Part shown: positions 1-4,581 of the stretch, piece by piece
Position numbering within the stretch: position 1 is the stretch's first letter
How the letters are laid out: the number at the start of each line of letters is the position of its first letter
From: a virus
IMG/VR virus record: IMGVR_UViG_3300025480_000017
Length of the DNA: 20,277 nt
Direction: 5' to 3' (one strand)
Translations under genes and position numbers: made by a program
The notes under the pieces: model-generated
Told to the model about the DNA's origin: nothing
Database searches by the model: none
What the model saw: the letters and a program-made list of their open reading frames with translations, nothing else

Positions 1-72
1 GGCGATGTGAGTGGGCTGACCGGCGATGTGAGTGGGCTGACCGGCAATGTGAGTGGGCTGACCGGCAATGTG
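1..72 (+). repeat. 21-bp coding tandem repeat, 3 full copies plus 1 partial
   Basis: GGC(G/A)ATGTGAGTGGGCTGACC at 1-21, 22-42, 43-63, partial at 64-72. No spacers. Confidence 0.95.
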
Positions 73-141
73 GACGAATGCGAAATCACTTCGACAGAGC
101 GCAAAAGCGGCATATTTGTATCTGATCTTGTCTCAAAATAA
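1..141 (+). CDS. C-terminal part (5'-truncated by the window) of a heptapeptide-repeat hypothetical protein
   Basis: Frame 1 reads GDVSGLT GDVSGLT GNVSGLT GNVDECEITSTERKSGIFVSDLVSK, stop TAA at 139-141. Not in the ORF track because the start is outside the window. Confidence 0.8.
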   Translation, partial: GDVSGLTGDVSGLTGNVSGLTGNVDECEITSTERKSGIFVSDLVSK

Positions 142-147
142 CCACCC

Positions 148-293
148 GGCAGACCTGCTCTGCCAAGGCCGCTGATAGGGAGTTCTGAGGGTATTGCTGA
201 CACAGTATATCCTCGGAGATCTACGCCGCATGAATATCCTGCAATGCGGAGCGGCCTTGGGAGCGCAGGATGCTCCACAACCAGGGGCGCTTC
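148..293 (+). ncRNA. Putative structured RNA: three-way junction with complementary loops, unknown class
   Basis: P1 163-173/250-260 (11 bp perfect). P2 185-194/207-216 (10 bp, two G-U). P3 226-231/244-249. Hairpin 260-264/272-276 with loop GCAGGAT (265-271) complementary to ATCCTGC (236-242) in the P3 loop. Confidence 0.55.
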
Positions 294-309
294 AACTAGG
301 AGAAAAACA

Positions 310-513
310 ATGAAAATCGACTTCCAAGACGGCCCAGATCACCTCAACATTCAACCCATGCCCAACCCGAAACCCTTGACCGTAGAACGAGTTATTATCA
401 AAGAGGATCACACAGACAAAGGCGGAGCAGGAGAAGAGTACGGGTACATCCGTAATGCTTCTATTCATCCTAGCGCGATTGCGGAAAGGCGGGCCTCTAT
501 CTGCGCGCCCTGA
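310..513 (+). CDS. Hypothetical protein whose 3' end runs into the foreign high-GC insert
   Basis: SD AGGAGA at 298-303 precedes ATG 310 (MKIDFQDGPD...). The last ~10 codons lie inside the GC-rich segment. Confidence 0.55.
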   Translation: MKIDFQDGPDHLNIQPMPNPKPLTVERVIIKEDHTDKGGAGEEYGYIRNASIHPSAIAERRASICAP

Positions 514-563
514 CCGAGGGACTCTTCGCCGGATCGGAGCGGCAGCCGGAGCTGCGCGCGCGT
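492..563 (+). pseudogene. miaA: Internal fragment of tRNA dimethylallyltransferase (miaA)
   Basis: Reads GLYLRALTEGLFAGSERQPELRAR, matching the MiaA GGTGLYLRAL..GL segment. About 70% GC, no start or stop. Confidence 0.75.
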
Positions 564-704
564 CAGGAACTCGTTGGCCGAGTAGACGCCATTCAGGTGC
601 TCGCCGGGCACATTGAGGAAGACCGGCAGACCGGCGCCGGTGGCCACAAAGACCGCGTCATAGCCCTCGTCGCGCATCAGCTCGTCCAGCGTGACGCTCT
701 TTCC
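558..704 (-). pseudogene. gltD: Internal fragment of NADPH-dependent glutamate synthase small subunit / SudA-like flavoprotein
   Basis: Reads GKSVTLDELMRDEGYDAVFVATGAGLPVFLNVPGEHLNGVYSANEFLTR, a hallmark GltD/SudA segment. Similarity stops after EFLTR, where VNL is expected. Codons have high GC at third positions. Confidence 0.9.
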
Positions 705-763
705 GGTGGCGGGGGCATTCGCGGGCAGGATGTTTAGGCAACTAATTTTGATAGGGGACCAAT

Positions 764-1078
764 TTGATTACGAAGACAACAAAAACGACTCTGCAATGCA
801 CGTGCGAGAAACCAAAGTGTGGAAAGTCTTGGGAATCGCAAGGTGAGGATATTCCTGAGCGCTGCCGATGGTGCGGAAGTCACACATGGAACGGCCAAGA
901 TTTGAGAAACAGCAAGATTTTCCTGTCCGCCTTTGGAATAACCCAGTCTATCTCTGACTGGTCAAAACAAACAGGTATCAACAGCCAAGTCATTCGCGCT
1001 AGAATAAGGCTAGGGTGGAAGGAAGATGATATTGTCACTCTTCCTGTCGGGCAAGTGAAAAAATCAAAGAAGGGATGA
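764..1078 (+). CDS. Zn-ribbon protein with a C-terminal HTH-like module of the type appended to phage endonucleases
   Basis: CTCEKPKC..W......PERCRWCGSHTWNG, then FGITQSISDWSKQTGINSQVIRARIRLGW. TTG start with AGGGGA SD. Confidence 0.7.
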   Translation: MITKTTKTTLQCTCEKPKCGKSWESQGEDIPERCRWCGSHTWNGQDLRNSKIFLSAFGITQSISDWSKQTGINSQVIRARIRLGWKEDDIVTLPVGQVKKSKKG

Positions 1079-1082
1079 GTCT

Positions 1083-1268
1083 ATGTTCACTCCTGAACAT
1101 CTTTTCACATTTCTCGGTTGGACGATGGTAACTTGTGTTGCTGTTTTCTACCTTGCCGATCCCGTGATCCCTTGGGAGAAAATAGCAAAAAGAGTTGTCT
1201 TGTTTCTTGCTGTCGGAATCATTGTTCTGTTTCTAGGATCATTGATTGTTGATTTTCCCGTAAAGTGA
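1083..1268 (+). CDS. Small membrane protein with two hydrophobic segments
   Basis: Hydrophobic runs LFTFLGWTMVTCVAVFYL and VVLFLAVGIIVLFLGSLIV. Tightly packed with neighbouring genes. Confidence 0.65.
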   Translation: MFTPEHLFTFLGWTMVTCVAVFYLADPVIPWEKIAKRVVLFLAVGIIVLFLGSLIVDFPVK

Positions 1269-4020: not shown

Positions 4021-4581
4021 TCAAAATCTCCCCAAACCGCTCTCTTTCGCCTTTTTCCTATCGCGCCTAGCTTTTTGCACTTGACCCCACGCGCCTGACT
4101 TCTTCAATTCGTTTTTCACGGCCATATCCGCTCTTGCCCCGGCTGCTAGTGCTACTGCCTTTTGTAACCTTGAGAGAACGTCCTGACGCGCTAAGGGAAT
4201 CTCTTTTTCCAAGAACTCAATCAGCTTTAGGAACTCGTCAACAGTTAGAGAACCTTTACATTGATTGCAGCGCTGGCACGGGTAATCAAGGTTTGATAAT
4301 CCTGTCTTCCCACCACGACTTAACGGTTGAGCATGATCGACTGCAACATCCTCGATTCCAAAGAACATTTTGCAGTACCGGCATACAACGACCCCATCTT
4401 CCTTCCCGCCCAATACTCCCAAAACATCTTCTCTAAAAGCGTCAAGATCGAAGTCTAAAGGCGGTAATCCTTTTTTCTTCAACCTCTCAACCATTCCAGA
4501 ATAACGGGAGCGCGTAACGTCCATAAACGTCTTATGAGCGTCCCTTGGAAATAAAATTCCTATGCCGATAAGTTTTGCCAT
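4021..4581 (-). CDS. HNH endonuclease (McrA-like, Zn-binding)
   Basis: CRYC...DHAQPLSRGG.....NL...CQRCN..KG. Confidence 0.9.
   Translation of the reverse strand: MAKLIGIGILFPRDAHKTFMDVTRSRYSGMVERLKKKGLPPLDFDLDAFREDVLGVLGGKEDGVVVCRYCKMFFGIEDVAVDHAQPLSRGGKTGLSNLDYPCQRCNQCKGSLTVDEFLKLIEFLEKEIPLARQDVLSRLQKAVALAAGARADMAVKNELKKSGAWGQVQKARRDRKKAKESGLGRF

Follow-up and report, generated by a model that had tools for sequence, protein, structure and literature searches.

The locus and its phage

The window, a 20,277-nucleotide stretch of IMG/VR virus record IMGVR_UViG_3300025480_000017, is phage DNA. It encodes RecT-like and SbcC-like proteins, a nicotinamide phosphoribosyltransferase, a ribose-phosphate pyrophosphokinase and primase/helicase proteins, together with a small serine recombinase, an HNH endonuclease and numerous small unannotated genes. 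The element described here occupies a 168-nt intergenic gap that extends from the TAA at 139–141 to the ATG at 310 (Table 1). The window phage is represented by ten near-identical assemblies from independent samples, all of which carry an identical element. INPHARED contains no close relative of this phage; its sole matches were full-length gltD-like genes, which aligned with a neighbouring high-GC insert.

The protein encoded upstream of the element is built from tandem 21-nt repeats (7 aa, GDVSGLT/GNVSGLT; window 1–72 and L141 2398–2610), the copy number of which varies among assemblies, and several contigs end within this array. Other repeat proteins lie nearby in the related phage record G001 (L003 3514–4065 and 691–999), namely a long 7-aa ENSSVVA(R/W) array and a 20-aa repeat protein. 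The setting suggests that a hypervariable repeat-protein region surrounds the element. The downstream gene comprises 67 codons; the sequence 5′ of its homologue in L003 is different.

Two further features were noted in this part of the window. Positions 493–740 form a block of ~68% GC within a phage of 45% GC, which starts exactly at the stop position of the homologous gene in L003 and carries an antisense gltD-like fragment. Independent assemblies contain two alleles of this block, with and without a 49-nt piece (the window and L144 versus L141, L137 and L146), joined at a CGCGCG run; the block is thus real and polymorphic rather than an assembly chimera. The window contains a single copy of a 15-nt motif, TTGATAGGnnAnCAA, at 748–762, 5′ of the open reading frame at 764; eight more lie on the + strand of the last 10 kb of G001 (L102–L104; 39168–48248), each G001 copy being situated 10–35 nt 5′ of the start of a small gene. 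With at most one mismatch allowed, eight copies are observed in the last 9.3 kb of G001 versus 0.06 expected. The motif is probably a phage-specific promoter or regulatory box, and it is absent from the records G002–G005. Positions 171–184 in the interior of the window element, CTGATAGGGAGTTC, resemble it.

Table 1. Coordinates of the element and its flanks in the window.
Feature	Position	Strand	Basis or remark
TAA stop codon of upstream gene	139–141	+	70-aa heptad-repeat protein; gene complete in relative L141
C/A-rich spacer CCACCC, conserved; family pattern (C)(A)ACC(C)	142–147	+	Flank comparison
5′ hairpin: segment 1 (148–153), loop (154–158), 159–164	148–164	+	Sequence; 153:159 covariation
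P1 inner stem, 5′ strand	165–173	+	Changes on both sides in 8/9 pairs, 100% of cells paired; found independently by RNAalifold
Hypervariable top; in the window P2 (about 183–218) and P3 (226–249)	174–249	+	Interior comparison
P1 inner stem, 3′ strand	250–258	+	Covariation
3′ module: segment 3 (259–269); local hairpin 260–265/271–276 (or 260–264/272–276); segment 4 (271–276)	259–276	+	155:268 covariation; 260:276 is GC, GU or AU
3′ extension ACAACCAGGGGCGC	277–290	+	Shared only by the L009/L071 subfamily; holds the alternative stem partner 287–293
Shine-Dalgarno (SD) AGGAG (298–302) and ATG (310–312) of downstream gene	298–312	+	Sequence inspection

A family of structured elements in environmental phages

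Positions 148–293 of the + strand fold with a minimum free energy of −72.9 kcal/mol (z = −5.45), a value that none of 200 dinucleotide shuffles equalled. The z-score of the − strand is −0.86, so the fold excess is limited to the + strand. The inverted repeat 154–173/250–269 is the longest within the first 3.2 kb of the window. No Rfam 15 family matched the whole window at the gathering threshold and none matched 13 other element-bearing loci; at a permissive threshold, window 1–1200 returned only a spurious snoRNA match (E = 10). A literature search by sequence, using conserved 17-mers, found no paper. An earlier, sequence-only reading had proposed that an uncharacterised structured RNA lies here, and had named comparison with dinucleotide-shuffled controls as a check; the proposal was borne out.

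We gathered 24 distinct relatives from phage and metagenome contigs. The first was found on an IMG/VR contig that carries a homologue of the downstream gene: two genes 5′ of this homologue, the same element ends enclose a different, shorter interior. Scanning for exact patterns of either end motif, and then of both, afforded 19 distinct sequences. A covariance model built on 18 distinct sequences, together with a scan anchored solely on the commonest inner stem, recovered the divergent members L045, L120, L122, L147 and L148 and the second copy of L023. All 16 pattern matches in JGI metagenome contigs proved to be true members, versus 1 of 24 matches in 185,579 species genomes (one genome per species). 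This single real match, which does not differ from a copy on a viral contig, lies on a phage-like contig of 3.4 kb that was binned with a Terracidiphilus MAG; 150 further genomes of the MAG's family contained no element. The element is a member of a previously undescribed family of 100–145-nt structured elements in uncultivated environmental phages.

A genome normally carries a single member, placed after a stop codon and ahead of the next ribosome-binding site. The covariance model detects one copy in the window and one in each of five whole phage records (G001–G005), including a complete 99.6-kb genome in which the element lies at 51.7 kb. G002–G005 are mutually related, and several small genes are common to the window phage and G001. 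Between these two sets no shared protein or DNA was detected besides the element, and the family spans at least two phage groups without detected common proteins. Flanking genes vary by locus, and neither Pfam nor PHROG annotated them informatively. An upstream frame of 50–156 codons terminates 2–6 nt 5′ of the 5′ hairpin in 17 of 23 contexts, and the next SD is situated ~5–30 nt 3′ of the element.

In every context examined the element is co-oriented with the neighbouring genes. The + strand of the window holds no terminator-like site, and no U-tract lies 3′ of the element. On the − strand, by contrast, the 5′ hairpin (window 145–167) precedes TGGTTATTTT and has a terminator-like score. Transcription would probably stop at an element inserted the other way round, and this could be one reason why all members point in the same direction.

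Several copies are partial or decayed (L118/L119, L122, L134 and the second copy of L023). The 3′ hairpin has been lost from L122 and L147, and the entire 3′ half from L118/L119. The half-element of L118 (7987–8254), present also in L119, keeps an L004-type 5′ hairpin, the P1 5′ strand and the interior, and its 3′ half has been swapped for unrelated sequence that still contains GCAAGG, the complement of the 5′ loop. L023 is the only contig with a second, diverged copy (2545–2678 and 4292–4408, 1.7 kb apart). Its upstream copy has an L077-like interior, and because the 3′ strand of this copy is a perfect complement of the copy's 5′ hairpin, the rod described below is the sole fold open to it.

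The main rival to the RNA reading developed below, which we consider unlikely, is that the hairpin is mobile at the level of DNA, as an element of the MITE or IS200/IS605-PATE type. The terminal hairpins would then serve as recognition sites on single-stranded DNA for a trans enzyme encoded by the host or a helper, the element would insert into short intergenic spacers, and the RNA fold would be a by-product that renders the insertion harmless. This reading is consistent with the 26-nt imperfect inverted-repeat ends around a variable interior, with the recurrence of near-identical ends in unrelated gene contexts and in phage groups without common proteins, and with the partial and decayed copies. 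Adjacency to a stop codon and an SD is natural for insertion into short spacers, and TAAC precedes the element in about half of contexts. G-U usage fails to separate the strands over the whole family and does not prove an RNA form; the counts being indecisive on strand, a single-stranded DNA form stays compatible. Several observations argue against mobility, however. The distance between TAAC and the hairpin is variable, flank comparison revealed no target-site duplication at the 3′ end, and two protein-anchored scans of relatives returned occupied or decayed sites only and no empty site. The orientation is always that of transcription, and the element is normally single copy, even in the complete genome. 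Reverse transcriptase (PF00078), tyrosine integrase (PF00589), serine recombinase/resolvase and Y1 transposase (PF01797) are all absent from G001–G005, and the searches of species genomes and of the Terracidiphilus MAG's family described above gave one true match and none, respectively.

The element was also compared with known mobile and recombination elements. Like the miniature inverted repeats (Correia elements of Neisseria, ERIC and IS200/IS605-derived PATEs), the element measures about 100–150 nt, is intergenic, has inverted-repeat ends and would be transcribed as an mRNA hairpin; unlike them it is single copy, shows no target-site duplication in the flanks compared, has no cognate transposase in G001–G005 and shares no interior between copies. 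A multi-copy MITE was rejected, with one copy per record and no host reservoir in the genomes searched. Integron attC sites likewise have imperfect inverted ends, conserved unpaired bases, a variable-length centre and a position directly past the preceding stop codon, but the element contains no RYYYAAC/GTTRRRY core sites and is accompanied neither by an IntI integrase (PF00589 is absent) nor by a cassette array. Retron or DGR RNA, phage attP, a resolvase site, an IS200/605 end, parS and bacterial Y RNA were each rejected, the matching protein families, including ParB_N and TROVE/Ro (PF05731), being absent from the five element-bearing records. In addition, no duplicate of the interior, such as a DGR template would have, was found in its own genome above shuffled controls; no host-context match, as for attP, was found in species genomes; and no Rfam match to a Y RNA was obtained.

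Two alternative folds of a conserved base

Members share one order of parts: the C/A-rich spacer, the 5′ hairpin, the inner stem P1, the interior, the P1 3′ strand and the 3′ motif. The 5′ hairpin typically reads GGCAGA-CYTGC-TCTGCC (GGCAGA-CCTGC-TCTGCC in the window), although L148 has a 7-bp stem and a 13-nt loop, and the typical form of the 3′ motif is GGGAGCGCARGATGCTC. P1, which is 9–16 bp long across the family, clamps a conserved base module composed of four segments: 1 (148–153), 2 (154–164), 3 (259–269) and 4 (271–276). These segments can pair in two ways. In the two-hairpin fold, 1:2 (148–153/159–164) and 3:4 (260–265/271–276) form hairpins of 6 bp each that flank P1. In the rod fold, 2:3 (154–164/259–269) and 1:4 (148–151/271–274) form an imperfect helix stacked on P1.

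In the minimum-energy fold of the window element, the two terminal hairpins of the sequence-only reading are merged into a single rod (148–173/250–274) with P2 and P3 atop, and hairpins 148–164 and 260–276 are alternative local folds of the two rod strands. The rod is favoured over the two-hairpin fold by 4–13 kcal/mol, loop-loop contacts being left out of the count. It contains three defects, in which G152 and A153 face A270, U159 faces C264, and G162 faces G261; in the local hairpins all three defects give way to Watson-Crick pairs (152:160, 153:159, 150:162, 261:275 and 264:272). The downstream SD is unpaired in both folds. Every helix named by the sequence-only reading is present, namely the 148–164 hairpin, P1 (163–173/250–260), P2 (185–194/207–216), P3 (226–231/244–249), the 260–276 hairpin (GGAGC-GCAGGAT-GCTCC) and the stem 260–266/287–293, and its proposal of mutually exclusive helices holds.

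Covariation supports both mutually exclusive folds. Across the 24 sequences, 97.7% of cells in the rod model are paired, changes occur on both sides in 10 of 22 pairs, and the covariation score is 0.336, compared with 0.097 for shuffled data; none of 500 shuffles scored as high. All of these measures collapse when the partner column is slid, and RNAalifold, run unguided, returned the same rod. Most of the covariation signal comes from P1. Elsewhere in the rod, pair 164:259 is UA in L120, five lineages have GC, CG or UA in place of the defect 159:264, and 155:268, which forms only in the rod and otherwise lies in the loops of the two hairpins, is UA, CG or GC. Pair 153:159, which exists only in the hairpin form and falls in a mismatch region of the rod, is AU in 11, GC in 3, UG in 2 and CG in 1 of 18 sequences, with one unpaired; it is CG in L120. 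The 3′ hairpin has also been rebuilt with other letters or in another register, as AGAGCG/CGCTCT with a 12-nt loop in L120 and as GAGAGC/GCTTTC in L148. Single-partner positions covary and two-partner positions are frozen, which is the pattern predicted by selection on both folds, with the qualification that the exact-pattern scans fixed many two-partner positions, so that invariance there is partly built in by the way members were collected.

These pairings bear on another explanation, an ordinary intercistronic stabiliser or terminator-like hairpin without a switch, in which the local hairpins would be incidental. A long, stable hairpin right after a stop codon does occupy the usual place of 3′ stabilisers and I-shaped terminators. 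Such a hairpin does not need sequence conservation, yet the base is near-invariant across unrelated phages while P1 varies freely, and the local hairpins are themselves under selection, as is shown by the covariation of 153:159 and by the rebuilding of the 3′ hairpin. Given also the lack of a U-tract after the element and its single copy per genome, we give this explanation very little chance of being correct.

Above P1, the interiors (47–85 nt) are unalignable between subfamilies and are not shared between them, recent relatives excepted; folded alone, they have a mean z-score of −1.16 and no common architecture. The three-way junction of the sequence-only reading is therefore lineage-specific: P2 and P3 are present in the window but are peculiar to its phage lineage, as is the stem 260–266/287–293, the alternative to the 260–276 hairpin. 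Covariation among homologues, strong for P1, lends no support to P2, P3 or a contact of the P3 loop. A short loop replaces the interior only in the degenerate L050.

Every canonical member thus retains an interior despite complete sequence turnover, and this retention is what a processing cassette for a variable small RNA would display. The rod would be cut on both strands, in the style of rRNA or pri-miRNA precursors, freeing a 70–110-nt hairpin of P1 plus the top that would act in trans on targets in the host or a competitor, or bind a host protein as Y RNA does. A conserved base with a variable top is the design of a precursor RNA, and accessory or counter-defence cargo is often single copy and shared by unrelated phages. 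We nevertheless regard this reading as decidedly unlikely, because the interiors lack a common architecture and are weakly structured alone, no complement or duplicate of the interior was found in its own phage genome above shuffled controls, and the phage records encode no TROVE/Ro protein. The same absence of matches led us to reject the interior as an antisense RNA or a template.

The loop of the 260–276 hairpin had been proposed to pair with the P3 loop. ATCCTGC at 236–242 does complement 265–271, and loop complementarity is under selection, but the P3 loop is not the conserved partner: an interior complement of at least 5 nt is present in 2 of 17 members versus 1.3 expected by chance. The conserved partner is instead the loop of the 148–164 hairpin, which had been cast as a competitor. 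Two 6-bp hairpins that share a junction seem unlikely, on steric grounds, to kiss within one molecule, and the complementarity therefore more likely reflects alternation between the hairpins and the rod.

The sequence-only reading had also offered a cis-regulatory switch, a ribozyme or an RNA multimerising by loop-loop pairing in the manner of phi29 pRNA; we weighed these as a ligand-sensing riboswitch, a self-cleaving ribozyme and a pRNA-like RNA. The complementary terminal loops, the covariation of 155:268 and the conservation of nucleotides beside the internal defects are compatible with these options, and, given the steric objection to intramolecular kissing, the loops might pair between molecules. 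No signature of a ribozyme or riboswitch was found, however, and no Rfam model of either kind matches at E values up to 10. The interior, which would have to hold a ligand pocket, is not conserved. The hammerhead core (CUGANGA plus GAAA) is not present, the closest sequence in the window being CUGAUAG at 172–178 in the non-conserved interior, with no GAAA strand and no counterpart in other members. Like phi29 pRNA, the element combines a junction with two loops whose complementarity is kept by covariation; unlike it, the element lies mid-genome, its loops belong to hairpins adjoining the 5′ and 3′ ends, its central domain is unconserved, and its relative L047, from the G002–G005 group, encodes a conventional terminase (large subunit). 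We assign these options very little chance indeed.

Two explanations based on translation were also rejected. The sequence of the 3′ motif, GGGAG-N6-ATG-CTC with a stop codon often coming next, recalls a start-stop leader mini-ORF; this was discarded as a general feature, the ATG being missing in L045, L120, L122, L147 and L148. As for recoding or readthrough, frame 1 of the window is open from 142 to 513, but across 17 members the extensions, whether in frame or shifted by −1 or +1, are short and random-looking.

A two-state reading of the element in phage mRNA

We propose that the element is a cis-acting two-state RNA module that is co-transcribed in polycistronic phage mRNA and operates with attenuator-like logic, a reading drawn from sequence comparison to which we assign a probability somewhat short of even (about 0.45). 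The closeness of the stop codon and SD is also expected from insertion into short spacers, which holds the reading to that level, and the loss of the 3′ hairpin or 3′ half in several lineages counts against it.

In the proposed mechanism, the 5′ hairpin (1:2) would form first during transcription, and P1 would then bring segment 3 next to it. Segment 3 could either fold locally with segment 4 or displace segment 1 by strand invasion, generating the rod. A ribosome finishing the upstream gene, which would be positioned 2–6 nt from segment 1 or directly against it, could tip the choice of fold. RNase III cuts duplexes like the 26-bp-plus rod in phage mRNAs. The rod together with P1 (at least 26 bp) may be recognised by a double-strand-specific factor of this kind; the two-hairpin form contains no helix as long as the rod plus P1 in most members. 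The element would in this way set where or when the operon mRNA is cut or stabilised. This output step is the weakest link of the proposed mechanism: with the SD free in both folds and no terminator, the regulatory output is not readable from sequence.

Among the systems compared, trp-type attenuators and phage RNase III sites perhaps come closest to the element in its working, and Correia/PATE elements and attC sites in its look; from each of them it departs in one or more defining features. As in the trp and his leader attenuators, four segments engage in mutually exclusive 1:2, 2:3 and 3:4 pairings, and segment 1 starts a few nt past the stop codon of a translated frame. In contrast to those attenuators, the 3:4 hairpin is not a terminator with a U-tract, the 3′ flanks being A-rich or carrying an SD. 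The upstream frames are ordinary genes of 50–156 codons that vary by locus, rather than leader peptides with regulatory codons, segments 2 and 3 are parted by a stem-clamped insert of 65–105 nt, and the setting is a phage operon.

The RNase III hairpins of phage mRNAs (the R sites of T7, and sib and the N-leader of lambda) are likewise long, imperfect intercistronic hairpins with conserved internal defects, situated just 5′ of the next ribosome-binding site. An imperfect intercistronic duplex of ~20 bp or more, the hallmark of such sites, is present as the rod (148–173/250–274) in all members. The element differs in that it occurs once per genome rather than many times, is near-invariant in sequence across unrelated phages and has a selected alternative two-hairpin fold.

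An extension of the two-state reading, which we regard as very doubtful, would make the element a single-copy RNA cassette exchanged horizontally among environmental phages. Its invariant two-state base would be read by a terminating ribosome or a double-strand RNase, and its hypervariable top would be a phage-specific small RNA released only upon translation of the upstream gene. Such a cassette would correspond, among viruses of bacteria, to a pri-miRNA-like precursor coupled to a sensor of translation.

The element is a genuine, conserved and previously undescribed structured element with a two-state base. Should it prove to be mobile as DNA, it would offer a rare case of a non-autonomous element that passes between virulent phages. 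Should it prove to be an RNA switch, it would represent a new class of cis-acting element in phage operons, and an unusual one, in that its alternative pairings are joined across a stem-clamped insert, its conserved base is common to phages without shared genes, and its covariation pattern is the one that a two-state design predicts. The family offers a compact and testable system of ~130 nt for the coupling of translation termination, co-transcriptional folding and RNA processing in the phages of uncultivated soil or peat bacteria.
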